The notes: generated by a model not told the origin, from the sequence alone. A DNA stretch of 64,000 bases from Promethearchaeota archaeon Loki_b32 (GCA_005223125.1 NJBH01000006.1:97507-161506); one strand, 5' to 3'; counted from the first letter of the stretch, positions 1 through 15,742 are shown. Numbers and translations: made by a program.

Positions 1-282
1 ATTAATATTAGAAGGATTCTTTTTTATATAGTTATAAATCTCATTTCGTTTTGGATGTTCAATAATATTATTTTTCATTAATCTTGTTCCTGGGATAATA
101 ACACGTTTTTTTATTAAATCTTTTAAAATTAATTCAATTCTATTCTCATTTATATTTGGATTATATCTAACTCTATTATTTATATACGATATGATTTCTT
201 TGATTGAAAAGAACGTTTTTTTTGTTAAATACTCTTTTACTAATTCAAGAACGACAGATTTTGCATTATCCAGAGAACTCAT
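1..282 (-). CDS. Winged helix-turn-helix protein, 3' end runs off the window
   Basis: Not in the ORF track. ATG at 282-280 opens an uninterrupted frame MSSLDNAKSVVLELVKEYLTKKTFFSIKEII...IIPGTRLMKNNIIEHPKRNEIYNYIKKNP. The R-x-x-I-Y-x-Y-I-x-x-N-P segment is typical of the start of an archaeal wHTH domain. Confidence 0.65.
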   Translation of the reverse strand, partial: MSSLDNAKSVVLELVKEYLTKKTFFSIKEIISYINNRVRYNPNINENRIELILKDLIKKRVIIPGTRLMKNNIIEHPKRNEIYNYIKKNPSNIN

Positions 283-549: not shown

Positions 550-885
550 ATGAGTTTTGAAAATGAATTTGATGAGGATTTAGTTGGGAAGGAGCCTGTA
601 AAATCTAAAACTCCCGCATCTAAAACCCCTTCAACAGGAAAGAAATTGACTTTGTATTTCATGTCTACTATTGGACCCGGTGAAAAGAAGGAAAAATTAA
701 CAGTAAATAACAATAATCGTGTGAGTGATATTAAACAAACACTTGGAAATTTATTTGGACTTAATCCAAACGATTTTCATTTATCATCTGGAGGTATTAC
801 AATGGATGAAAATAGCTACTTAAACGATTATAGTGTAAGTGATGGCGATGATATTCTTTTGATCCCTGCGAGTACTGCGGGGTAA
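550..885 (+). CDS. Ubiquitin-like (beta-grasp) modifier with N-terminal extension and C-terminal -STAG
   Basis: Residues ~32-111 align by eye with ubiquitin (RVSDIKQTL ~ TIENVKAKI; LSSGGITMDENSYLNDYSV ~ LIFAGKQLEDGRTLSDYNI). Ends in Gly. First gene of an E1-E2-JAMM cluster. Confidence 0.85.
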   Translation: MSFENEFDEDLVGKEPVKSKTPASKTPSTGKKLTLYFMSTIGPGEKKEKLTVNNNNRVSDIKQTLGNLFGLNPNDFHLSSGGITMDENSYLNDYSVSDGDDILLIPASTAG

Positions 886-917
886 ACTTATATAATTTTC
901 TTCATAAACTATAATAT

Positions 918-952
918 AAGGGCGCTAAGCCCTTTAATTTTTTTTATTTTTT
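918..952 (+). terminator. Stem-loop plus T-tract between the Ubl and E1 genes
   Basis: AAGGGC(918-923)-GCTAA-GCCCTT(929-934), followed by TAATTTTTTTTATTTTTT. Confidence 0.55.
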
Positions 953-976
953 TAATAATTATAATTGGTGATTATA

Positions 977-2200
977 TTGGGAAAGAGTTCAGATTTTTTT
1001 AGTAGAGGCCTGACATCGGAAGAGAGAAATTTATACGACCGCCAATTTAGGCTTGAGGGATGGTCTCAGAAACTAGTAAAAAACACTCGAGTTTTGATAG
1101 TTGGAGTTGGGGGATTAGGTTGCGAAATCGCAAAAAATCTGGCAATGTTAGGAATAGGACATTTAGATTTAGTAGATTTAGATATTATTGAACATTCAAA
1201 CTTAAATCGCCAAATTTTATTTACGGGTGCTAAATTGGGGGAACCTAAAGCAATCGTGGCGGCAAAAAAATTAACTGAAATAAATCCAAATATTAATGTA
1301 AATGGTTATCATACTTCCTTAGAGCGCCTAGATCCTGCAATATATAGAGCTGCTGACGTTATTATTGGAGGTCTTGACTCCATGAACGCTCGATTGAATT
1401 TAAACGCTCAATGTGTAAGATTTAGGAAACCACTAGTAGATGGAGGTGTGTCAGGTTATCATGGTCATGTCTACACGATTTTTCCATTCAAAAATGCATG
1501 TTATGAATGTAACCCGCTCCCTATAGCTGAAAGTGATGAGATGGCTGCATGTACTGTAGTAGGAATACCAAGAAAGAGGATTCACTGCATTTTTAAAGGA
1601 GATATGGCCTTTAAAGAAAAATTCGATAGGGATCCTAATCCAAAAAGTGTTGTTGATATTAAATTCATTCAAAAAGTTGCTAATGAATTAGTAAATAAAC
1701 ATAATTTTCTCCCGGAATATACTCAAGATGATATTGTAAAGATTATCGATAGACATGATCCAGGAATAATTACCATAAATGCTGTCATTTCAGCATTACA
1801 ATCTCATGAAGCTATAAAAATCCTTCATTGGAAAAAAGGACATATAGGTTTAGGTGAACCAATAAAAACCTATGTTATTTTCAATGCAATGACAATGATG
1901 TTTTATCATATTGAAAAAAAAAGAAATCCAGAATGTTCCCAATGTGGAAAAAAAGTTCGAAGATTTGTCGTGAAATTAAGAGCACGTTCTCCATGTATTA
2001 ATATAATCAAAGTATTAGAAAAACATGGTTTTAAGTTAGATCCTGATCTCGAACCCGTAATAACATTATTGGATTTTAATGATATTAAGATGATTGATCT
2101 AGAACAGAATCCAATTGAAAATGGTTTAAGAAATTACGAATTTATGACTGCTGCAGGGTTTAAAGATGGAGAAATTTTTGTAACCTTAAAATTAAAATAA
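977..2200 (+). CDS. Ubiquitin-like activating enzyme E1 (ThiF family, UBA3/SAE2-like)
   Basis: YDRQ, GVGGLGCE, SNLNRQ, GLDSMNAR, CYEC and CSQC zinc pairs, catalytic-Cys segment AACTVVGIPRKRIHCI. TTG at 977 follows a GGTGA SD (track start 965). Confidence 0.93.
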   Translation: MGKSSDFFSRGLTSEERNLYDRQFRLEGWSQKLVKNTRVLIVGVGGLGCEIAKNLAMLGIGHLDLVDLDIIEHSNLNRQILFTGAKLGEPKAIVAAKKLTEINPNINVNGYHTSLERLDPAIYRAADVIIGGLDSMNARLNLNAQCVRFRKPLVDGGVSGYHGHVYTIFPFKNACYECNPLPIAESDEMAACTVVGIPRKRIHCIFKGDMAFKEKFDRDPNPKSVVDIKFIQKVANELVNKHNFLPEYTQDDIVKIIDRHDPGIITINAVISALQSHEAIKILHWKKGHIGLGEPIKTYVIFNAMTMMFYHIEKKRNPECSQCGKKVRRFVVKLRARSPCINIIKVLEKHGFKLDPDLEPVITLLDFNDIKMIDLEQNPIENGLRNYEFMTAAGFKDGEIFVTLKLK

Positions 2201-2282
2201 AAAATTAATCTAAAAATGTTTTAAATAAAAAAGATTAATTGAAAAAAAATATTAATTATAATAAAAAAAAAGGGTTGAGAAT

Positions 2283-2810
2283 ATGAGTATAAGAAGTAGT
2301 AGAATCTCGCAAGATTTTGCGGGATTAAAAAAATTGTATAAACAAGGAACTATTATTCAGTTAAAACCATTTAATCCAAAAAGAAAGAGTATTGATCATT
2401 TAGCAATTACTATTAAAGGACCTAAAGGTACTGTTTATGCAGGTGGTCTTTTTAAATTAGAAATGAAATTCCCTGCTCAGTATCCTAGACAACCACCTTT
2501 TGTAAGACTGCATACTCCAATCTGGCATCCAAATTTTTGGGCAAAACCAAGTGAATATAAAGGACAAAGAAATATTTGTTTAGCATTAGTAGATCCCTCC
2601 CTAACTGGTAAAAGAGGAGGGTGGAGTCCATCAAAAACAGCGGTTACCGTTGTTCAAGCAATAATTGCTATGTTAAACACACGAGGTAAATATGTAAATC
2701 CTACCGATGTTTTTAATAAAAAAGCTGCGATAGAGATGATGAAAAATCAGAAGTTTTTTGAGAAAAAAGTGAAGAATCTCGTGAAAAAGTATGCAAATAA
2801 AAAATGGTGA
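2283..2810 (+). CDS. Ubiquitin-conjugating enzyme E2 (UBC fold)
   Basis: GPKGTVYAGGLFKL, FPAQYPRQPP, HPN motif, catalytic Cys in NICL, WSP motif. Confidence 0.95.
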   Translation: MSIRSSRISQDFAGLKKLYKQGTIIQLKPFNPKRKSIDHLAITIKGPKGTVYAGGLFKLEMKFPAQYPRQPPFVRLHTPIWHPNFWAKPSEYKGQRNICLALVDPSLTGKRGGWSPSKTAVTVVQAIIAMLNTRGKYVNPTDVFNKKAAIEMMKNQKFFEKKVKNLVKKYANKKW

Positions 2811-2818
2811 TTACTTTA

Positions 2819-3631
2819 ATGGAGAATAAAGAATTAGCCAATAGTTCAATCAAAGACGTAATTAAAAAGAAGATAAAAGAAAAAATAAAACAAGAATTAC
2901 TAGATGAAATATGTGAAGAACTTAAATTAGAGGAAGAAGAATTAACAGAAGAGATTTGTTCAATGCTTACTAAAAAAACCTCTGCCAAACCAATAATAAA
3001 ACTTTCTAAGATACCTACCGTCAAAATAGAAGAGAAAAAGCATGTTGAAATACAAATAGAAGAGGAAATACAAAAAGAAGTTTATATTTCAGTAAAAAGT
3101 ATACTTAAAATAGCAAGTCATGCGCTTAAATATGCAAATTCTAAGATTCGAAGAGAGAATTGGGTGGAAGTTATTGGGCTTCTAGCAGGAAAATTAGATA
3201 AAAACGAAATACTCCATATTGAAGATGCTTACCCAATGGGGCATGGAACGGCTGTATATGCCGAAATTAAAGATTATAAGAATTATGTGAGGGCATTTAA
3301 AGATATTAAAAAACAGAGATTATTTATATGTGGATGGTATCATAGTCATCCTTCATATGGTCTTTTTATGAGTAATGAAGATATGGGCACTCAAGCAAGA
3401 TATCAAACACTTTGGGATAAAGCAGTTGCTCTTGTTGTTGATCCATACCTAATTGACGGTACTTCACCAGGCTTTGAGATTTATAGCGCTAATTTGAAAT
3501 CAAAAACATGGTATCCATTATTATACGGGATTAAAGGGTCATTAGATGTAAGAATGTTACCTGAAATATTGAAATTTATGCATCCCCTCATTGAAGGAAA
3601 GCCAGTATATCTTGAATATGATGAAGATTAA
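2819..3631 (+). CDS. JAMM/MPN+ metallo-isopeptidase (Rpn11/CSN5-like) with charged N-terminal extension
   Basis: EVIGLLAG, GWYHSHPSYGLFMSNED (H-x-H-x7-S-x2-D), AVALVVDP. ATG at 2819 follows GGTGA (track start 2804). Confidence 0.92.
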   Translation: MENKELANSSIKDVIKKKIKEKIKQELLDEICEELKLEEEELTEEICSMLTKKTSAKPIIKLSKIPTVKIEEKKHVEIQIEEEIQKEVYISVKSILKIASHALKYANSKIRRENWVEVIGLLAGKLDKNEILHIEDAYPMGHGTAVYAEIKDYKNYVRAFKDIKKQRLFICGWYHSHPSYGLFMSNEDMGTQARYQTLWDKAVALVVDPYLIDGTSPGFEIYSANLKSKTWYPLLYGIKGSLDVRMLPEILKFMHPLIEGKPVYLEYDED

Positions 3632-3659
3632 AACAGAAGAATTTTGGTGATTTTAGACT

Positions 3660-4850
3660 ATGGCAAAATTTAAATCGGTAGTAATTTTTCTAGCGATATT
3701 TTGCTTAATTGGTATAATCCATGGTGCTCTTCTAAATTCAATTAATGTTTTTGTAACTTGGTTGTTAATTGGAATTTGGTTAATTTATTCTTTCAAAGTT
3801 CTAAAAAATATCAAACAATATCGTGAATTTAATTCTCCTCATAATACTGCTTTTTTTACCATTGGTCCTGTTTTAATGGGAATTTTTTATTCAGTGTGGA
3901 GTAATTTCACAGGTTTATTAGGAGAAAATCTTTTAGAAAGTACAGATTTATATTTAAGTTGGTGGAGTATACTATTTGGATTTCCCTATATATTATATGG
4001 TTCGATTTCTTTATACCGTTGTTTTAAAAAGTATAATGTAATACATTTTAGAAGGAAATCAATAAAAGCACGCACATTTGGTTTTATTTTAGGAATCTCC
4101 ATTCTCCTGTTTATAATTATATACTGGATAAGTTTTTATTCAATTATAGACTTTTATGAATCTTTAATAACACCTCTCCATTTTTTAATAGATCTCAATC
4201 TATTAATATTACTTATCAGTACTATACTACTATTAATAGTCCCTGGCTTGTTTGGTGCTCAAACTCCATTACCTCAACTAACTAGAGATTACATAGCAAG
4301 ACGTACAAGCAGATTAAACAATTTAACATCACCCACCCCTAATCGACAAAGACAAACTGTTCGTACTACAACTAGATCATCTCCAACACCTTCAACAAGA
4401 ACAGTTGCTCGCACAACAAGATCAGTTTCTCGTTCTGCAAGATCAACGCCTACAACAAATAGATATTCTACAAGCTCTAGAGAAAAAAAAACTACTCAAA
4501 CTGTAGGCAGAAGAGCAACAGGACCAGTGCGAAGAAAAAAAACTGTTACAAAAATAAGCAATTTCAATTTATATAAACCAAAAGCAGCACGTCTTTCAAC
4601 AGAGGATTTTAAATGTATTTTTTGTTTTAAGTTACCAGAATATCCTAAAGATAATGGTAGAGGAATAATATTGTGTCCAAAATGTAAATACCCCGCTCAT
4701 GCTGACGAATTTAAAGATTGGCTTCAAAGTTCTAACCTATGTTCTCGGTGTAATACACCAATTCCCTCAAGCTTTAGAAGAAATCCTAAAACCATAAGTG
4801 TAAAAAATTATATAATCGTCATTAAGCATTTTGTAAGTAATAGGAGATGA
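3660..4850 (+). CDS. Polytopic membrane protein with C-terminal RING-variant zinc finger, candidate E3 ligase
   Basis: About 6 hydrophobic segments in residues 1-200, an R/T/S-rich linker, then CIFC-x16-CPKC-x4-H-x2-E-x3-W-x6-CSRC. GGTGA SD. Last gene of the Ubl operon. Confidence 0.7.
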   Translation: MAKFKSVVIFLAIFCLIGIIHGALLNSINVFVTWLLIGIWLIYSFKVLKNIKQYREFNSPHNTAFFTIGPVLMGIFYSVWSNFTGLLGENLLESTDLYLSWWSILFGFPYILYGSISLYRCFKKYNVIHFRRKSIKARTFGFILGISILLFIIIYWISFYSIIDFYESLITPLHFLIDLNLLILLISTILLLIVPGLFGAQTPLPQLTRDYIARRTSRLNNLTSPTPNRQRQTVRTTTRSSPTPSTRTVARTTRSVSRSARSTPTTNRYSTSSREKKTTQTVGRRATGPVRRKKTVTKISNFNLYKPKAARLSTEDFKCIFCFKLPEYPKDNGRGIILCPKCKYPAHADEFKDWLQSSNLCSRCNTPIPSSFRRNPKTISVKNYIIVIKHFVSNRR

Positions 4851-4883: not shown

Positions 4884-5819
4884 TTATTTTAACTTTTGTT
4901 TTAACGCCCCAATAGTAGTTTTTAATTCAGCATAAACATTAAAAATATGAATTGATTCAAAACTTTCAATTTTAAATTTGATTTCGAAATTATCTTCAAT
5001 GTTAGGAAAATCTCTTAACATGAAGTTTTTTGCCATTTCTCTAATCACATCTTCTGAAAATAACGGTTTTAGATGAGCGCTTCTTACTAATTCAGCTTCT
5101 TCAGGTCTTTTTAACACAGATTGTATTTTCCCACTCATTGAGTCTTCTATTACTTCAATAATATCTAAAACATCAATTTTATGGCCTGTTAAATCCTTTA
5201 TTTGGACAATTATTGATCCAATAGATCTTTGATTATGTGAGGAAAAAGGAAGTATATTTATTAATTTCTTAAGATCTTCTTCGCTAACATTTATATCTTT
5301 TCTTGTTTTAATTATTTCTTCGGCATATTCTTGAGACATTTCTTTAGCACAGGGACATACAGTTATCCCGACTGCGCTCGCACCCACAAAATAGTTAAAA
5401 TCAATCTTTCCAGCTTCATCTCTTTTAGCTCTTACAAAAGAACTAATATTATAAGATTTTTGGATATTTCTGGAATTATTTTCTCTTACCTGAACAATTA
5501 TTTTTCCTTCTAATTTAACTTCCGCTTTTGATGAATATGGATGTCTTTCTAAGAGTTTTTTAACGATTCTATCACCTACTAATTCAATTGTAGGCGTTGG
5601 TTTGTAAATTACTTCATTTATAACTTCCTCTATTGTTTCAGAAGTACGCGACATATGTATTCCACGCTGTTTTGCGGGAAGATTAATCAGTGCTGAGATC
5701 GTGGGGTAAAATGAGTATTTTTTATTTTCTTGTACGATTTCAACTTTTTTCTCTAGTTCTACTATTCCAACTTTATCAATTGCAATGTCAATTGCTGAAC
5801 CGGAATCCTGTAAATCCAT
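4884..5819 (-). CDS. mptA: GTP cyclohydrolase IV (FolE2/MptA family)
   Basis: RGIHMSR, TVCPC, SHNQR, LKRPEE, ESIH motifs. Confidence 0.9.
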   Translation of the reverse strand: MDLQDSGSAIDIAIDKVGIVELEKKVEIVQENKKYSFYPTISALINLPAKQRGIHMSRTSETIEEVINEVIYKPTPTIELVGDRIVKKLLERHPYSSKAEVKLEGKIIVQVRENNSRNIQKSYNISSFVRAKRDEAGKIDFNYFVGASAVGITVCPCAKEMSQEYAEEIIKTRKDINVSEEDLKKLINILPFSSHNQRSIGSIIVQIKDLTGHKIDVLDIIEVIEDSMSGKIQSVLKRPEEAELVRSAHLKPLFSEDVIREMAKNFMLRDFPNIEDNFEIKFKIESFESIHIFNVYAELKTTIGALKQKLK

Positions 5820-5929
5820 TTTAAACTCGTGAATTTTAAATCACCAGAATTAAAAAATAATTTTATTTTGTTCTATTCATAAAGAAGATTAGATAAAATA
5901 TAAAATAATTTGAATTTTTCAAGAACTAA

Positions 5930-7099
5930 ATGCCTAATAAAAGTATTTTCAGCAAATTTGCATTAATAGGAGAAGATTTAGAACTTAAGCAAGATGTTTT
6001 ATTAGAAATCGATGAAGAAGGAAAGATAATTAACATCACAGATAATAATCCAGATATACACATCGAAATTTTTAAAAACGGTCAAAATTATTTGCTAATA
6101 CCAGGCTTTATTAATTCTCATACACATATAGGTGATAATTTTGCGAAAGAAGTTGGTTTTAATAAAGATTTGGTGGAGGTAGTTGCCCCACCATTTGGTC
6201 TTAAACATAAATTATTAAGACAAATCCCTGAACACATTAAAATTAAAGGAATTCAAAACGCAGTTTTAGAAATGCTTTCAAATGGTATTATATTTTTCAT
6301 TGATTTTAGAGAGGGAGGTATTGAAGGTGTAAATCTTCTAAAAAAAGCACTTATTAAGAGTCCAATTAACTATATAATCTTAGGGCGATTTATGGATGAA
6401 AGTGAAATAGATTCTTATTTTGATTTAGCAGATGGAGTTGGATTATCTAGTTATAAACAAATTACTTCATCAAATGAAAAATATATTATAGCAGCCAAAC
6501 AGAAATATAAAAAAATCATTGCTTGTCATTGTGCTGAAAAAACTCGCATTGATCTTTTAATAAATAAAATGTTTAATGAGAATCTTGTTGATGTCATCGT
6601 TCATGGTACTAAATTTATCAAAAAAGATTTAGAAAAATTGATAGAAAATAAAAAATCTCTTGTTTTATGTCCTCGTTGTAATGGATATTTTGGAACTGGA
6701 TTTCCACCCATTAATGAAATTATAAAATTAGGAATTCCCTTATCATTAGGAACAGATAATTTAATGGTAAATAATCCCGATTTATTTGAAGAAATACGAT
6801 ATTTTTATCGGATTTCGAGAGTATTATGTAGTTATGATAAAGAACTTCAGTTTACTTCTAAAGATTTATTGAAAATGGTAACAATAAACGCCGCAAAAAA
6901 TTTTAATCTTGAAAATGAGTTTGGTTCAATTTCAAAAGGAAAATTTGCTGATCTTTTTATAGTCGATCTCAATTGTCCAAATCTTTTTTCTTCTATATTA
7001 GATTCTAATAATATATATAATTTAATTACTCAAAGAGTAAAATCAGAAAATATAATTAAGACCTATATTAAAGGAGAATTAGTGTTTGAAAGAAAGTAA
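5930..7099 (+). CDS. Metal-dependent amidohydrolase (deaminase-like)
   Basis: PGFINSHTHIGD, HCAE, VHG, LGTD, TINAA, GKFADL. Confidence 0.85.
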   Translation: MPNKSIFSKFALIGEDLELKQDVLLEIDEEGKIINITDNNPDIHIEIFKNGQNYLLIPGFINSHTHIGDNFAKEVGFNKDLVEVVAPPFGLKHKLLRQIPEHIKIKGIQNAVLEMLSNGIIFFIDFREGGIEGVNLLKKALIKSPINYIILGRFMDESEIDSYFDLADGVGLSSYKQITSSNEKYIIAAKQKYKKIIACHCAEKTRIDLLINKMFNENLVDVIVHGTKFIKKDLEKLIENKKSLVLCPRCNGYFGTGFPPINEIIKLGIPLSLGTDNLMVNNPDLFEEIRYFYRISRVLCSYDKELQFTSKDLLKMVTINAAKNFNLENEFGSISKGKFADLFIVDLNCPNLFSSILDSNNIYNLITQRVKSENIIKTYIKGELVFERK

Positions 7100-7751
7100 C
7101 AAGCCCTATGTCATTTTAAGCGCTGCAATGACTATTGATGGTAAAATCGCCACTAAGAAGGGCGATTCAGAATTATCCGATAAAGCGGATTGGAAAGAAG
7201 TACATAAACTCCGAACTCAAGTTGATGCTATAATGGTAGGTAAGGGGACTATTTTAAAAGACAATCCAAAATTGCATATTAAATATTATAATCATCGAGG
7301 ATATTATAGACTTGTTCTAGACAGTAATTTAACGATTCCATTAGATTCCAATGTCATATCTTTTCAACAAGAAATTTATCCTACAATTATTTGTACCACT
7401 GAAAATGTACCATTGGATAAAATAAAAAAGTATGAAGATAAAGGTGTTAAAATTATAAATGTTGGAGATGACAAACGCGTGAGTCTAATAAAACTTTTAC
7501 CTATCCTAAAAAATTTAGGAATAAATACCATATTACTGGAAGGTGGTGGCAATTTGAATTGGAGTTTTATAGAAAATAATTTAATTAATGAAATACGGTT
7601 AACTATAGCTCCCTGGATTGTTGGTGGAAAGGAAGCAACAAGCCTAGTAGAAGGAATAGGATTTGAAAAGATAGTAAGTGCACCTAGATTTGAGCTTTTT
7701 GATGTTAAAGTTAGAACTTATTACATTACTCTAAGATATAAAAGGAAGTAG
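7086..7751 (+). CDS. arfC: 2,5-diamino-6-ribosylamino-4(3H)-pyrimidinone 5'-phosphate reductase
   Basis: AAMTIDGKIAT, DAIMVGKGT..DNP, LLEGGG (RibD C-terminal domain). Context next to cofGH. Confidence 0.88.
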   Translation: MKESNKPYVILSAAMTIDGKIATKKGDSELSDKADWKEVHKLRTQVDAIMVGKGTILKDNPKLHIKYYNHRGYYRLVLDSNLTIPLDSNVISFQQEIYPTIICTTENVPLDKIKKYEDKGVKIINVGDDKRVSLIKLLPILKNLGINTILLEGGGNLNWSFIENNLINEIRLTIAPWIVGGKEATSLVEGIGFEKIVSAPRFELFDVKVRTYYITLRYKRK

Positions 7752-8860
7752 TGATGAGGGAAAATAAAATCACACAGTTAAAAAACCTGAAATTTAATAA
7801 AATAAGAGAAAAGGTTAAAGAAATAAAAACTGAATTATCTGAACAAGAACGTAGTGTGATTACTTACTCGAGAAATTTCACACTTTCTCTTTCAAACTAT
7901 TGTGTTAATCAGTGTGGATATTGTTATTATAATTATAAAATTCCTAAGCTAAATAGTGAAGATAATGTAATATTGCTTAGGAATGAGCAAATTGTGTCAT
8001 ATATTCAAGAAGCTCTTCAATATAATTGTAAAGAAGCCCTGATTATGTCTGGAGAACGCCCTGGAAGTTTTCAAGAAGTTAAAGAAGAATTGAAAAAAAG
8101 AAATTGTTCAGATTTTATAGAGTATGTAAAAAACGTTTGTACATATTTACTTGATTCTAAAATTCTACCTCATTCAAATTTAGGATTTTTAACTTATGAT
8201 GAATTAATGGATTTAAAAAAATACAATGCTAGTATGGGGTTGATGCTTGAGGGTACTAGCATGAAACTTTTTAAAAAAGGGGAAGTTCATGAACATTCTC
8301 CTGGAAAATTACCAAAAAAGAGAATAAAGCACATTACTGATGCCGGAAAATTAAAAATTCCGCTTACTACGGGATTATTGGTCGGTATTGGAGAGGTAAT
8401 TGCAGATATCATAGAAGATTTACATTTAATAAAAAATATCCATAAAAAATATGGACATATTCAAGAAGTTATTATTCAGAATTTTGTAAGGAAAGATAAG
8501 ATTCCATATCAACCTAAAAAGCCAATTGCCATCGAAGAGGTGCTAAGAATAACTGGAATAGCTCGAATTATTTTAGAAAATGAAATTGCGATTCAAGTTC
8601 CGCCTAACCTCATAGCTGGTTTTGAAAAGCATTTTCTCGATATGGGAGTTGATGATTTTGGAGGTATTTCTCCGTTTACATTAGATTATATAAATCCTAA
8701 AAAAATTTGGCCTCAAATTGATAATTTGAATAAAATTTGTAACGATAAAGGTTTTACACTCAAAGAGAGACTCCCTATATATGATAAGTTTGTAAATAAA
8801 GAAGGATTTTGCTCAGAAAATATTAAAAAAATAATTGATAATATAAATCTAGATGACTAA
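7751..8860 (+). CDS. cofG: Fo synthase subunit CofG
   Basis: TYSRN, CVNQCGYC, SMGLMLE, TTGLLVGIGE, HIQEVIIQNF, IQVPPNL, DFGGISP. Confidence 0.93.
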   Translation: MMRENKITQLKNLKFNKIREKVKEIKTELSEQERSVITYSRNFTLSLSNYCVNQCGYCYYNYKIPKLNSEDNVILLRNEQIVSYIQEALQYNCKEALIMSGERPGSFQEVKEELKKRNCSDFIEYVKNVCTYLLDSKILPHSNLGFLTYDELMDLKKYNASMGLMLEGTSMKLFKKGEVHEHSPGKLPKKRIKHITDAGKLKIPLTTGLLVGIGEVIADIIEDLHLIKNIHKKYGHIQEVIIQNFVRKDKIPYQPKKPIAIEEVLRITGIARIILENEIAIQVPPNLIAGFEKHFLDMGVDDFGGISPFTLDYINPKKIWPQIDNLNKICNDKGFTLKERLPIYDKFVNKEGFCSENIKKIIDNINLDD

Positions 8861-9983
8861 TTCGCAATTTTTTGAACATATTAAATCAAATATAAAAGCG
8901 ATTTTACAGAAGGCTTTAAATTCAGAGGAATTAAGCTCAGATGAAGCGCTAGAGTTATTAAAAGTAAAGGGAAAAGAATTCTTTGCCCTTCAGTATGTAG
9001 CTGATCAGATCTGCTTTGAAAAAATGCAAAATATTGTAACCTTCGTAATAAATAGAAATATTAACTTTACAAATATTTGCTATCAGCATTGTAAATTCTG
9101 TTCTTTCAGTTTGCCAGCAACCCACACTAACGCATTCTTACTCACTATTGAACAAATTAGTGAAAAAGTAATTGAGGCAAAAAAAATTGGATGTACTGAA
9201 GTTTGTATTCAAGGAGGTATAAATCCAGATTTAAAGTTTGAATTTTATTTAGATATACTTAAAATTGTTAAGAAAATAGATCCAAATATTCATATTCATG
9301 CTTTTTCTCCACAAGAATTATTTTACATGTCAAAATTGTATGAGAACTCAATAGAAGATACTTTAAAGGAATTAAAAAAAGCGGGATTAGATTCAATTCC
9401 AGGAACAGCAGCAGAGATTTTAGTAGATGATATTCGGAAAATTATATGTCCTAATAAAGTTTCTACTCTACAATGGATTAACATCATTACTACTGCCCAT
9501 AATTTGGGAATCCCAACGACATCGACAATAATGTACGGGCATATAGAATCATTAAATGATCGAGTTACACATTTAGATGTTTTAAGAGAAATTCAAAAAG
9601 AAACTAAAGGCTTTACTGAACTTGTACCTTTACCTTTTGTAAAAGAAAACCCTATGTTATCTAAACTTGAAGATTTTCCGTTAAATCCAACCTATGGAAT
9701 GGATGATTTAAAATTATTTTGTGTATCTCGGATATTTTTAAATGATTATATTGATAATATACAATGCAGTTGGGTAAAATTAGGTCCAAAATTTGCTCAG
9801 GTGTCTTTAAATTTTGGAGTAAACGATTTCTCAGGAACATTAATGGAAGAAAATATATCAAGAAGCGCTGGAGCAGAATTTGGTCAATATTTACCACCCG
9901 AAGAAATAATTAATATAGTTAAAGCTGCTGGAAAGAAACCTACACAAAGGGATACTCTATATAATATATTGAAATATTATTAA
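8853..9983 (+). CDS. cofH: Fo synthase subunit CofH
   Basis: NRNINFTNICYQHCKFC, PGTAAEIL, TIMYGH, NIQCSWVKLG, GTLMEENISRSAG. Confidence 0.93.
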   Translation: MTNSQFFEHIKSNIKAILQKALNSEELSSDEALELLKVKGKEFFALQYVADQICFEKMQNIVTFVINRNINFTNICYQHCKFCSFSLPATHTNAFLLTIEQISEKVIEAKKIGCTEVCIQGGINPDLKFEFYLDILKIVKKIDPNIHIHAFSPQELFYMSKLYENSIEDTLKELKKAGLDSIPGTAAEILVDDIRKIICPNKVSTLQWINIITTAHNLGIPTTSTIMYGHIESLNDRVTHLDVLREIQKETKGFTELVPLPFVKENPMLSKLEDFPLNPTYGMDDLKLFCVSRIFLNDYIDNIQCSWVKLGPKFAQVSLNFGVNDFSGTLMEENISRSAGAEFGQYLPPEEIINIVKAAGKKPTQRDTLYNILKYY

Positions 9984-12340: not shown

Positions 12341-13912
12341 TTATTCATCTTGGATATAAGGTTTTCCAAAAAATATGCAAATTTCTGCTTTTTTCAATTC
12401 TCTACCTAAATAATTTAAATGATATACATCTTGCGTCAATTTAGATTGAATTATCTTTTTACTTAGTGCTTCAGAATTATCTCCAATAAAAGTCTGGAGT
12501 AAAATATCATCATTTGTATAGAAGAGAACATAAATTTTTCTTAAATAATGATTTACATAAATCCTAAAATAACCGTTTTCATCAGGAGTATATTCAGGAA
12601 TTAATTCATTTACTAATATTGCTCTTTTGTCATTAAATTTTGGTGTTTTTTCATTTATTTTTCCCTTGGCTCTGAAAACTGAAATGCCTTGATTTATAGG
12701 AGGTGTTTTTTTGTGTTTAGCTACAAAATTTAACTTTACACTTTCTTTTAGTTCTCTTACTCCTCCCATCAATTTTGTACTATGTTCAACAGTAAAAAGA
12801 ACGCCCATATCCTGCTCAATTGCAATACTTGCTAATAAGCCGTTAATTCCAACGGAATCTATATCCATTAGTTCAACTACGTTTGAGATTCCAAAAAATA
12901 AAGGGAGTTCAAAATTTTGATACTTATCTTCTGAAATTTTTTTTTTATATAAGAAATAAGTTTCTAATGAATTACAAATACCAGGAGTTATAGGAGTTTC
13001 TAATAAAGGATCAGCTATTAATTTTTTAAAGCCATTATTTTGCAATTCATTCGTCAGTTTAAATAAATTTTTAATACGTATTTCAGGATCTTTAGGAAAA
13101 TATGCTTCCTTAACATTAGTAGGAAGTATAACAATAGGAATGTTTTTGGGAAGATTTAAGAATTCCTTATAATTACCTAAATCCAAACTTAGAATTAGAT
13201 CAATATCTTCATCAACAGCGGCATTAATCTCATCGGAATCCATTGAATCAACACTAATTAAAATATTAAAATTAGACCTTACTAATTTAATAATCTCCTT
13301 TACTCTATCTGAATTTGGTTTATTAGAAACACAACCAATATCAATTATGTCTGCTCCAGAGCCTATATAGTGTTTAACTTTTTTGAGAATATTATAATCG
13401 CTTTTTTCTGTACAGTTCACAATTTCTGCTATAATTGGGGGTGGTAAATTTCTACCAATTATTATTTTAGACTTTTCTTCATTCAAGTAATATGTGTGAA
13501 AGCTTAATTGATCTTTTGCTAATTCTAACTGTTTCTTTACTATTTCAGAAAACTCACTTTCTCCTGAAATCTCCATTAATCTATTTGCTGGTATGGTATT
13601 AGATAATTCTAAATTCTCTAAATTTTTTAATATAGTTGGTATTTCAGATGCAAACTCGGGTCCTTTCCTAATTTTTATTGAATATTTATCTTCTAAATTC
13701 TTAGAATCCCACTGTACAAATCCAGGTATTAATACAATATCATAGTGAGAAATTTCTATTTGTTCTATTATCTTAGATGTTATAGATTCAGTAAGAAAAG
13801 CAGAAATTGTAATTGGTGCTTTTATAATATTTATATTATGCTCTTTAGAAGTTTTTGTTATCTTTTCTATTATATTATAGCTCTGTTGACCAGTAATTAT
13901 TAGAATTTTAAT
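12341..13912 (-). CDS. Dihydropteroate-synthase-like protein (methanopterin-associated, DUF4346-type C-terminus); true start probably ATT at 13912
   Basis: GADIIDIG, SVDS, ADP, NVVELMDIDSVG, HLNYLGREL. The frame stays open 112 codons upstream of the track ATG (13576) and encodes the family N-terminus KILIITG...LIPG...KGP...PA. Confidence 0.85.
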   Translation of the reverse strand: MKILIITGQQSYNIIEKITKTSKEHNINIIKAPITISAFLTESITSKIIEQIEISHYDIVLIPGFVQWDSKNLEDKYSIKIRKGPEFASEIPTILKNLENLELSNTIPANRLMEISGESEFSEIVKKQLELAKDQLSFHTYYLNEEKSKIIIGRNLPPPIIAEIVNCTEKSDYNILKKVKHYIGSGADIIDIGCVSNKPNSDRVKEIIKLVRSNFNILISVDSMDSDEINAAVDEDIDLILSLDLGNYKEFLNLPKNIPIVILPTNVKEAYFPKDPEIRIKNLFKLTNELQNNGFKKLIADPLLETPITPGICNSLETYFLYKKKISEDKYQNFELPLFFGISNVVELMDIDSVGINGLLASIAIEQDMGVLFTVEHSTKLMGGVRELKESVKLNFVAKHKKTPPINQGISVFRAKGKINEKTPKFNDKRAILVNELIPEYTPDENGYFRIYVNHYLRKIYVLFYTNDDILLQTFIGDNSEALSKKIIQSKLTQDVYHLNYLGRELKKAEICIFFGKPYIQDE

Positions 13913-14999
13913 CTAAATCACTCATCAGCTTTTCTTTTTCAAATGGTATAAAAATATCATCCAAGATTGAACCTGTAGCTTCTTTTATTTTTAAATTATC
14001 TATAATTGGTTCGAATCTTCCCCCTATGAGTCCATTGGCAATAAATGCCGCCCCTTGTGCAGCACGTTTAGAAATTTGACTAAAAGATTTCATTGTTCTG
14101 ACAGGAGCAATATCTTTTAATCCACGAATCATTTTTTCTCGAAAATATACTAAATCTGATCCTCTCCCTGCCAATAAAACTTCTTTTATTTTATCTTTAG
14201 AAGTAAAGGATGAAGATAGTCCAAATACTGCTTTTTTCACACTAGATAGGTAAGCTTTTAGAGCTAATTTTGTTTGATTGTCCTTCTTTGCGAGAAGGGT
14301 GATCTCTTTTAAACTCAAATTGGAATATCCAGAAATATATGCTACACCACCTTTATATATATTCTTTTTATGAATTGTTTTAATAAGATATGCTAGTTCT
14401 CCATCAAGAGATCCACATGCTCTAAATCCCATGATATTTGATCCTCCTATTCCATCAACAATTTGACCGTTTTCAATTGCCAAGACTGCTGTGAAACCAT
14501 ACCCTATCTCAACCATTATAAAATTTGTATCTTCTGGAGAGATTTTGAATCTTTCAATTTGATCTCTAATTCCAGTAACAGCTGTACAAATTTTATCTGC
14601 AGTACCCATATCAATTTTATTAATTTTTTGATGTCTAGGAACAGTAGTTAAATGCTTAACTCCAGGGACAATAATGCCAGCAATTTTTTGAGCTTTAATT
14701 AATCTTAGAACTTCTCCAAGACCAACCAACTTATTTTTTTCTTTCTGGTCAAATTTTAGTAATGTAAAAAAAATATCTTGTTCTGTTAATTCATGTACAT
14801 CTTTTAAAGGAAGCCCAAACCCACTTGGAGCGACCATTAAATCAATATCTTTTACAGAATTTATTATAGTTAAAGCTTTTTGAGGATCAGAAATTAATTC
14901 TGTAGTGGGTAATGAGGTATCTAAAATTATTTTGTCATCTTCTAGCCCGAAGAAATCCCAGCTCTTCGATCCGGGGTCTATACCGAGAACTCTATACAT
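13908..14999 (-). CDS. DUF1464 family ASKHA-superfamily kinase-like protein
   Basis: GIDPGSKS, APSGFG, DMGTADK, GQIVDGIGG, AAQGAA. Confidence 0.8.
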   Translation of the reverse strand: MYRVLGIDPGSKSWDFFGLEDDKIILDTSLPTTELISDPQKALTIINSVKDIDLMVAPSGFGLPLKDVHELTEQDIFFTLLKFDQKEKNKLVGLGEVLRLIKAQKIAGIIVPGVKHLTTVPRHQKINKIDMGTADKICTAVTGIRDQIERFKISPEDTNFIMVEIGYGFTAVLAIENGQIVDGIGGSNIMGFRACGSLDGELAYLIKTIHKKNIYKGGVAYISGYSNLSLKEITLLAKKDNQTKLALKAYLSSVKKAVFGLSSSFTSKDKIKEVLLAGRGSDLVYFREKMIRGLKDIAPVRTMKSFSQISKRAAQGAAFIANGLIGGRFEPIIDNLKIKEATGSILDDIFIPFEKEKLMSDLD

Positions 15000-15211
15000 C
15001 GATAATCAGACTTAATATATTAATACATTTTAAAAGATTCTATAATTCTTTTTATATTCTATTTTTTTTTAATAATTGCTTTTAACTGAATCTTTTTTTA
15101 GAATTAAAGTTAAAACTATAAAAATTGTGGAAATTTTTACTAATTTAATCTATACATGAAATCTTATACTAAGTTGTAAGATAAGAATTTAAAAAAAAGT
15201 GGTGAAAAAAG

Positions 15212-15742
15212 ATTATTGTTAAAGTTTTTGTATGTAAGATCTGTGGAGAAGCGTTTATTGGGGAAGAAGCTCCAAGTCGATGTCCTTTTTGTGGTGCATT
15301 TAAAAAGTATTTTGTAGAATCGACAGAGTATGATGATACTGGCGCGTGGGATGTCGAATTAAATGAAAAAGATAAAGCAAATGCTCAAAAAGCCTTAGAA
15401 GTTGAAGTATCAAATAATATTTTTTATAAATGTGCAAGTAAAAAGACACCAGAATTAGATGGTCAAAAAATATTTAAAATTCTTGCTAAGGTTGAAGCTG
15501 AACATGCATCAGTATGGAAAAAAATACTCAAACTAGACAAGGTTGAATATCCTAAATATGATAAATGTGTTGCAGAATATAAACCAAATTTAGAAGAATC
15601 TCATGCACGAGAAGATAGAGCTATAAAATTCTATGGTCAGGCTGCTGCTGAGGCTGAAAATGCACGAGTAAAGGAAATATTTAAAGCTTTTGTAGAAGTG
15701 GAAACAGATCATCTTCATCTCTCGGAAGCCAGACTTAAGTAA
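15212..15742 (+). CDS. Reverse rubrerythrin (N-terminal rubredoxin plus ferritin-like diiron domain), non-AUG start
   Basis: Not in the ORF track. The frame reads IIVKVFVCKICGEAFIGEEAPSRCPFCGA...ALEVE...KVEAEH...AREDRAIKFY...EVETDH...RLK-stop. GGTGA at 15201-15205 precedes ATT codons at 15212 and 15215. Confidence 0.88.
   Translation: MIVKVFVCKICGEAFIGEEAPSRCPFCGAFKKYFVESTEYDDTGAWDVELNEKDKANAQKALEVEVSNNIFYKCASKKTPELDGQKIFKILAKVEAEHASVWKKILKLDKVEYPKYDKCVAEYKPNLEESHAREDRAIKFYGQAAAEAENARVKEIFKAFVEVETDHLHLSEARLK

Follow-up and report, generated by a model that had tools for sequence, protein, structure and literature searches.

A conserved Lokiarchaeia operon with an Ala-Gly ubiquitin-like modifier, its predicted cascade enzymes and a candidate membrane RING ligase

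The ubiquitin operon of Caldiarchaeum, composed of CsUb, an E1-like protein, an E2-like protein, a small RING finger protein and CsRpn11, has been reconstituted (PMC5654768, PMC6043591). Asgard systems were surveyed as Clusters I and II, which are split by E2 phylogeny; according to the same 2017 survey, only small proteins were known among archaeal RINGs, and its lists include Loki E1s, one of them with a predicted C-terminal ubiquitin-fold domain (PMC5654768). Clusters joining ubiquitin genes with those of the endosomal-sorting (ESCRT) machinery are described for the Odin, Hel and Heimdall lineages (PMC9192718, 10.1101/2023.07.25.550441), and the Loki ubiquitin and ESCRT genes constitute two separate regions (PMC9192718). 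The usual Asgard picture comprises one Gly-Gly ubiquitin, small soluble RING ligases and a link to ESCRT. This study concerns a five-gene operon at positions 550-4850 of a 64,000-nucleotide stretch (the window) of the Lokiarchaeia genome Promethearchaeota archaeon Loki_b32 (GCA_005223125.1, NJBH01000006.1:97507-161506), whose modifier ends in Ala-Gly and whose last gene encodes a predicted membrane RING protein. The operon likely represents a reversible ubiquitin-like (Ubl) cascade that is orthogonal to Gly-Gly ubiquitin and acts at the membrane by means of single Ala-Gly tags.

A sequence-only reading had described five co-oriented, tightly spaced genes. All five open reading frames were confirmed on the plus strand, in the order Ubl, E1, E2, JAMM and transmembrane (TM)-RING, with intergenic distances of 79, 82, -7 (or +8 with a later JAMM start) and 28 nt. 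Bit scores given with the genes are Pfam scores over the cut-off.

550..885 (+): ubiquitin-fold modifier, 111 aa, C-terminus IPASTAG-stop (PF00240, ubiquitin, 26.4 bits; structure model)
965..2200 (+): E1 of canonical type, 411 aa (ThiF, 208 bits; alignment, profiles)
2283..2810 (+): E2, 175 aa, with HPN and Cys99 (UQ_con, 92 bits); ortholog of Lokiarch_29330 / A0A0F8VF99
2804..3631 (+): JAMM/MPN+ metalloprotease of the Rpn11/CSN5 type, 275 aa (JAB, 57.5 bits; profiles)
3660..4850 (+): predicted membrane RING protein, 396 aa (alignment, structure model, RING/U-box fold matches, E2-RING model)

Among E2-centred Loki loci with sufficient flank, this order recurs in 60 of 61, so the arrangement is not due to chance. 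Hodarchaeales show the same order with two Ubls, in Heimdallarchaeaceae the genes are clustered with Ubl-E1 shifted downstream, and clustering extends to three more families (one whose E2 cluster includes Borrarchaeum, plus two others). In 61 genomes of the same class, which as kin are not independent, the Ala-Gly Ubl and the E2 ortholog occur together in 49 and are jointly missing from 10, the two discordant cases being fragmented assemblies. Synteny across Asgard genomes reveals co-conserved genes, which supports the sequence-only reading. The operon is complete on a 6,035,313-bp contig of the cultured Ca. Lokiarchaeum ossiferum and can be tested there now.

Compared with the compact Caldiarchaeum operon, the locus is similar in being clustered and in combining a ubiquitin-fold modifier with presumed propeptide processing by an Rpn11-like JAMM, a single-chain canonical E1, an HPN-type E2 and a candidate RING E3, yet it lacks the Gly-Gly and small-RING features. 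Caldiarchaeum has a Gly-Gly modifier with Arg72 and a Gln at the E1 specificity gate, whereas Ala-Gly, Ala72 and Tyr are found here; the soluble small RING corresponds to a six-helix membrane RING with a putative Glu ligand, and the E2 contains two inserts. The Asgard ubiquitin-ESCRT clusters share the enzyme classes and occur in the same genomes, but the operon E1s and E2s form separate clades, no ubiquitin E2 variant (UEV) or ESCRT gene adjoins them, and the modifier is devoid of the hydrophobic patch needed for UEV binding. UEV and ESCRT genes were found neither in the window nor beside the operon, and Snf7 genes lie on other contigs of this genome (C54 and C64). The absence of ESCRT, previously taken as a distinguishing mark, was dropped as such and as a sign of novelty, since the separation of the two gene sets is already described and expected for Loki (PMC9192718).

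Judging from its sequence, the operon belongs to a cluster that is already catalogued, as its E2 is a direct ortholog of Lokiarch_29330, which appears in print together with Heimdallarchaeota AB125_09840, LC2_08360 and LC3_05760 and Loki CR_4 (PMC9192718 supplement); by-eye comparison with the published Lokiarch_29330 row reveals differences at 3 of 41 residues of the active-site stretch. The two clusters also agree in having ubiquitin genes away from ESCRT. In contrast, the available text of the papers treats these genes as components of general ubiquitylation and, within those portions, mentions neither the Ala-Gly tail nor modifier specificity nor the membrane RING. No paper on an Ala-Gly Asgard modifier or a membrane RING was found in the searchable literature, which leaves out most subscription papers, and the Lokiarch_293xx locus tags gave no match in a full-text literature search. 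None of four features (Ala-Gly tail, E1 gate, polyprotein precursors, membrane RING) was described in that searchable literature.

In trees restricted to Asgard sequences, the operon E1s form one clade (99/99), as do the operon E2s (97/96); both lie outside the remaining Asgard E1s and E2s and have similar internal branching. They are separate from the canonical Gly-Gly clades of the ubiquitin-ESCRT systems. The operon E2 clade joins the second Loki E2 clade weakly (82/88, with a long-branch flag), a placement that was not relied on. In Lokiarchaeum, the Gly-Gly pro-ubiquitin Lokiarch_37670 is separate from the operon. Within the order, 52 of the 61 genomes carry this type, operon-less ones included, and the Loki gene is solitary, with no adjoining E1 or E2; genomes without the operon retain the Gly-Gly gene and separate E1 and E2 genes. 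Hodarchaeales encode a Gly-Gly ubiquitin of the canonical kind, for which a dedicated E1, a dedicated E2 and a small RING are present; in two other lineages, too, operon-bearing genomes combine such a ubiquitin with an E1 and an E2 distinct from those of the operon. The separate clades and the Gly-Gly systems of the same genomes support the earlier proposal of a second Ubl pathway apart from Gly-Gly ubiquitin. In the genome of the window itself no Gly-Gly pro-ubiquitin was found, an absence that is not established given 71 contigs and 95.5% completeness; this strain may be losing its Gly-Gly pathway, or the assembly may be faulty. The genome does contain a second E1-E2 pair:

G000:C30:10900-11449 (+) and 13772-15355 (-): second Loki E1 and second E2

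This E1 is 527 aa long, about 80 aa of which form an insert, and the E2 is broken across two frames. Hodarchaeales also contain a third Ubl system (L244, L245), composed of a modifier ending in QIKGG, a 410-aa E1 with the same catalytic motif, a 180-aa E2, a JAMM and a 587-aa RING-motif protein.

The modifier consists of an acidic low-complexity N-terminal tail of about 30 aa, a beta-grasp core and the mature C-terminus. Its structure model (predicted local distance difference test, pLDDT, 91.8) has Caldiarchaeum ubiquitin as the best Foldseek match (E 4.7e-8), and further matches include ubiquitin, ISG15 and NEDD8. In the Foldseek alignment the last Gly superposes on ubiquitin G76, so that Ala stands in for G75; positions 72 and 75 (ubiquitin numbering) are both Ala. 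The equivalents of ubiquitin I44, K48 and K63 in a pairwise alignment are Ser79, Ile83 and Asp98, and the Ser at the I44 position is present in at least 90% of family members. The S[TVI]AG tail is found in 59 of 59 homologue copies (41 loci), in line with the -AG end noted for this modifier before, and the Ala-Gly end recurs in 131 further copies, in place of the Gly-Gly that characterizes the Caldiarchaeum-type operon. Thirty-five of the 59 copies stop at the tail Gly, and 24 extend by 1-7 variable residues. Conservation that stops exactly at Gly, with free tails beyond, is presumably the mark of a processed, conjugated C-terminus. As the final tryptic peptide comprises 49 residues, the tag would escape standard trypsin-based Gly-Gly proteomics.

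Head-to-tail Ala-Gly precursors, an archaeal parallel of polyubiquitin genes, are encoded on short metagenome contigs (three units in P0266 and two units in P0268; L255, L256), one such precursor being present on two contigs. The Ala-Gly domain, with its terminal Gly retained, is also fused behind other domains (L087:12072-13814, P0294, P0305, P0375), i.e., a HerA-like ATPase, Roadblock, a zinc-ribbon-like domain, and Cdc48-N plus VWA; such entire proteins might be conjugated as tags.

The tail of UFM1 has a single terminal Gly and IP-x4-G spacing. The same spacing in the operon modifier prompted consideration of a UFM1 identity, and short propeptides and membrane association are further likenesses. 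However, all 40 modifier members match PF00240 and none match PF03671, so the modifier is not classed as UFM1; PF03671 had no match over the cut-off in 251 Asgard genomes or on the operon genes of this genome, and UFM1 was not in the best 50 fold matches listed. Asgard Ufm1 homologs are reported separately (PMC12962969), and the rejection covers the Pfam matches and the fold matches listed. The operon also differs in its enzymes: its E1 is not UBA5-like (89 vs 177 bits), and in place of UFC1, UFSP and UFL1 it has a canonical E2, a JAMM protease and a RING as the putative E3.

The E1 comprises an adenylation domain, the catalytic Cys196 within CT-x4-P-x4-HC, two CxxC pairs and a C-terminal extension, probably a ubiquitin-fold domain. 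In alignments over several Asgard families, GxGGLG, NLNRQ and Cys196 of the E1, HPN82-84 and Cys99 of the E2, and E122, H180, H182, S190 and D193 of the JAMM are invariant, so that the catalytic motifs are indeed intact. Eukaryotic families were compared with the E1, E2 and JAMM by profile scores, and for the E1 these (UBA3 177, UBA1 173, UBA2 161, UBA5 89 bits) fail to separate UBA3 from UBA1. The lead of UBA3 is tiny, and the Caldiarchaeum E1 is likewise reported nearest to NEDD8 E1 (PMC5654768 supplement); a UBA3-like E1 was therefore rejected as a distinguishing or novel mark of this cassette. The E2 has inserts on both sides of the catalytic Cys and is 55-97% identical across Asgard classes, and its profile comparison favours no eukaryotic E2 family, with no specific tie to UBC12/UBE2F. 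The JAMM, with a charged N-terminal extension and a conserved start that is probably Met6 at 2819, scores best with Rpn11 (90 bits), followed by Caldiarchaeum Rpn11 (85 bits) and CSN5 (81 bits).

At the specificity-gate position of the E1 (Tyr170), the 25 operon E1s all share Tyr and the 9 other Asgard E1s tested all share Gln; it corresponds to Arg in NEDD8 E1 and Gln in Caldiarchaeum E1. In the NEDD8 pathway, Ala72 of the modifier and Arg190 of UBA3 constitute an established specificity device. Canonical Asgard Gly-Gly ubiquitins have Arg at position 72, and the Ala-Gly tags have Ala, Val, His, Ser or Phe. The combination of a Tyr gate with a non-Arg position 72 suggests, by analogy with NEDD8, modifier specificity. 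The system is similar to that of NEDD8 in the small residue at modifier position 72 opposite a bulky E1 gate, in the JAMM protease and in having UBA3 as the top profile by a small margin, but its modifier is not Gly-Gly, and the operon has a single E1 gene with no APPBP1-type subunit or cullin. The resemblance is a working likeness at the gate, with no descent implied.

The fifth protein gave no Pfam RING over the cut-off, with weak zinc-finger matches only. Its model contains six N-terminal helices (residues 2-197), an Arg/Thr/Ser-rich disordered linker and a confident C-terminal domain. The latter matches RING/U-box E3s (Z 7.8, root-mean-square deviation 4.2, 75 residues; Z 7.1, root-mean-square deviation 3.3, 70 residues), entries that dominate both fold-match lists, and has the cross-brace fold. 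The ligands are C319, C322, C339, C342, H347, E350, C361 and C364 (C4-H-E-C2), accompanied by W354; in the alignment, neither W354 nor any of the eight ligand positions, Glu350 included, varies between families, the Glu is present in 72 of 73 further loci, and Glu350 may be a zinc ligand. The E2-binding surface (loop-1 hydrophobe and helix Trp, here I320, F321 and W354) is conserved and located at the modelled E2 interface. The E2-RING complex model scored 0.66 (best control 0.00), above a mark reached by 58 of 80 solved pairs and 2 of 110 mismatched pairs, with a contact agreement between runs of 100% and a partner pLDDT of at least 88. The modelled contact is canonical, pairing helix 1 and loops 4 and 7 of the E2 with I320/F321/W354; as E2-RING is a textbook pair, the result may reflect likeness to solved structures more than binding. 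The models nevertheless make the six-helix protein a probable E3 ligase, in keeping with the polytopic RING E3 architecture put forward earlier, and the basic loops behind helices 2, 4 and 6 suggest a cytoplasmic location for the RING.

Eukaryotic membrane RING E3s (e.g., Hrd1, Doa10/MARCH6 and other TM-RINGs) likewise have a polytopic domain, a linker and a cytoplasmic RING; they differ in their modifier, in the C4-H-E-C2 ligands found here, and in the membrane domain, for which there is no sequence or clear fold match. In Heimdallarchaeia, a sixth operon gene encodes a membrane protein of 190-220 aa that is paralogous to the membrane domain of the TM-RING but has no RING (L074:5471-6055, L082:5640-6218 and orthologs; hhalign 97.9%, E 6e-13). 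Soluble RING-motif proteins with the same spacing and Cys or His as the sixth ligand are encoded at G000:C48:122481-123008 and C40:1808-3895.

Under the proposed mechanism, the cascade would operate on the cytoplasmic side of the cell membrane. Precursors would be trimmed by the JAMM after ...STAG, which is unneeded for the window copy, as it is already mature. An E1 homodimer would adenylate the terminal Gly of the tag and form a thioester on Cys196, with Tyr170 accommodating a modifier whose residue 72 is small and shutting out Arg72-type ubiquitin, and the tag would then move to Cys99 of the E2. The cytoplasmic RING would recruit the E2 and drive transfer onto lysines of membrane or membrane-bound proteins, delivered by the transmembrane domain, and the JAMM would undo the link. 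As the modifier has a long acidic tail and lacks the I44 patch, K48 and K63, single attachments read by dedicated partners, as for SUMO or UFM1, would be expected rather than chains read by UEV/ESCRT.

Several points weigh against this proposal. The operon was not found in several near-complete Loki genomes, nor in two single-contig ones, and is therefore dispensable; a large Asgard family likewise yielded none in 59 genomes. The Z-scores of the RING are middling (7-8), its sixth ligand is Glu and not the Cys or His of a standard eight-ligand set, Ser replaces the loop-2 Pro, and the linchpin position 365 is Asn (Asn, Asp, Ser or Ala in the family), with no Arg; given the Glu, Ser and Asn, RING activity is not guaranteed. 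The membrane domain matches its own Asgard family only, with no known relative hinting at substrates, although such an absence does not establish a new fold. The gate argument is one of analogy, and conservation is all that indicates that the E1 and the JAMM can tolerate Ala75, as they would have to. In Loki Gly-Gly ubiquitin, position 72 is Thr instead of Arg, so cross-talk with the operon E1 is possible there.

Quality control resembling endoplasmic-reticulum-associated degradation (ERAD), in which tag chains would mark damaged membrane proteins for Cdc48 extraction and the proteasome, seems unlikely. The build of the polytopic RING E3 and the Rpn11-like JAMM would suit such a role, one E2 insert is placed as in Cdc34/Ubc7-type E2s, which are among the top pairwise matches, a homologous tag domain is fused to the Cdc48-N/VWA protein elsewhere, and a proteasome-subunit-like gene (by motif) lies a few genes off in some genera. 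However, the tag is missing the K48, K63 and I44 equivalents, the E2 profile favours no ERAD E2, and the fold-match lists, which cannot exclude such a relation, give no sign that the membrane domain resembles Hrd1 or Doa10.

It is improbable that the enzymes are active but also process Gly-Gly ubiquitin, which would make the operon the general Loki ubiquitylation cluster already described. The inclusion of the cluster in published ubiquitin surveys, the solitary state of the Loki Gly-Gly pro-ubiquitin gene and its Thr72 are consistent with shared enzymes, but operon-less genomes keep the Gly-Gly gene with separate E1 and E2 genes, the operon E2 and the Ala-Gly tag are lost jointly, and the clades and the gate residue are distinct. 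Little probability is likewise given to the membrane protein being an anchor or pseudo-RING, with the E2 transferring directly or with a soluble RING, or with a membrane lipid as the acceptor. The Glu at ligand 6 and the missing linchpin Arg would fit, as would the soluble RINGs of the same spacing in the genome (one locus has a similar protein close to the operon) and the RING-less paralog next to the operon in Heimdallarchaeia; against this stand the invariance of the seven Cys/His ligands, Glu350 and W354, the position of the gene behind the JAMM throughout, and the canonical modelled E2 contact. An antiviral system like the bacterial E1/E2/JAB types (Bil, Cap2/Cap3), which would tag proteins of the virion or the host at the membrane, is very improbable despite a patchy distribution with lineage losses and one genome with two apparent copies, because the neighbours are housekeeping genes in conserved order, with no mobile genes or defence-island context near the operon, the E2 is well conserved between classes and the E1 and E2 trees are congruent, PADLOC (2023 library, which may miss newer systems) matches only the shared ThiF domain of the E1, and a distinct bacterial-type JAB-E1-E2-Ubl cluster is present on contig C36 of the same genome.

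The proposed orthogonal membrane cascade, found beside ordinary ubiquitin in related genomes, implies that parallel, membrane-linked tagging pathways probably predate eukaryotes. If the proposal holds, Ubl pathways of an orthogonal kind, equipped with an E1 specificity gate, modifiers other than Gly-Gly ones and RING ligases embedded in the membrane, existed in archaea, Hodarchaeales included. A speculative and rather doubtful extension places the Ala-Gly system in the ancestor of Lokiarchaeia and Heimdallarchaeia and hence plausibly in the archaeal host of eukaryotes, where it would have served membrane quality control through a (hetero)dimeric polytopic RING, a eukaryotic pathway descending from it directly (a membrane E3 lineage or a NEDD8/SUMO/UFM1 branch).

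The surroundings of the operon contain further members of the modifier family and a possible regulator.

1..282 (-): 5' part of a divergent winged-helix gene, 225 aa, the rest upstream of the window; candidate regulator
G000:C44:95770-96192 (+): second Ala-Gly Ubl (L031), 140 aa, with a longer acidic tail; upstream of the window
G000:C44:96243-97031 (-): TM-Ubl fusion, 262 aa; upstream of the window
G000:C70:2563-2901 (-): third Ala-Gly Ubl, stand-alone, 89% identity to the window copy

The operon had been called self-contained; this does not fully hold, as the second Ala-Gly Ubl, the TM-Ubl fusion and the winged-helix gene are located directly upstream, mostly beyond the window. A second Ala-Gly Ubl copy is usual in this genus. 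The TM-Ubl fusion has two N-terminal membrane helices and a C-terminal Ubl domain of the same family without the terminal Gly, and could be a membrane adaptor or a decoy. The winged-helix gene heads a unit with the fusion; the two are kept together, and the winged-helix gene stays next to the operon, in two Loki genera. RNA-library contigs from one study span E1-E2-JAMM and part of TM-RING, mostly at 95-99% identity, but cannot show transcription and may derive from DNA, and were left unused as evidence.

Downstream of the operon, the genes at 4884-9983 appear to belong to cofactor biosynthesis; by appearance, they encode a GTP cyclohydrolase, an amidohydrolase, a RibD-type reductase and two radical-SAM proteins of the CofG/CofH kind. 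The separate cluster on contig C36 (G000:C36:100586-102957) contains JAB, E1 and E2 genes and a convergent gene for a 91-aa Ubl-like protein ending in GG plus three residues; it adjoins two genes resembling small GTPase fusions and resembles the bacterial-like 'Cluster III'.

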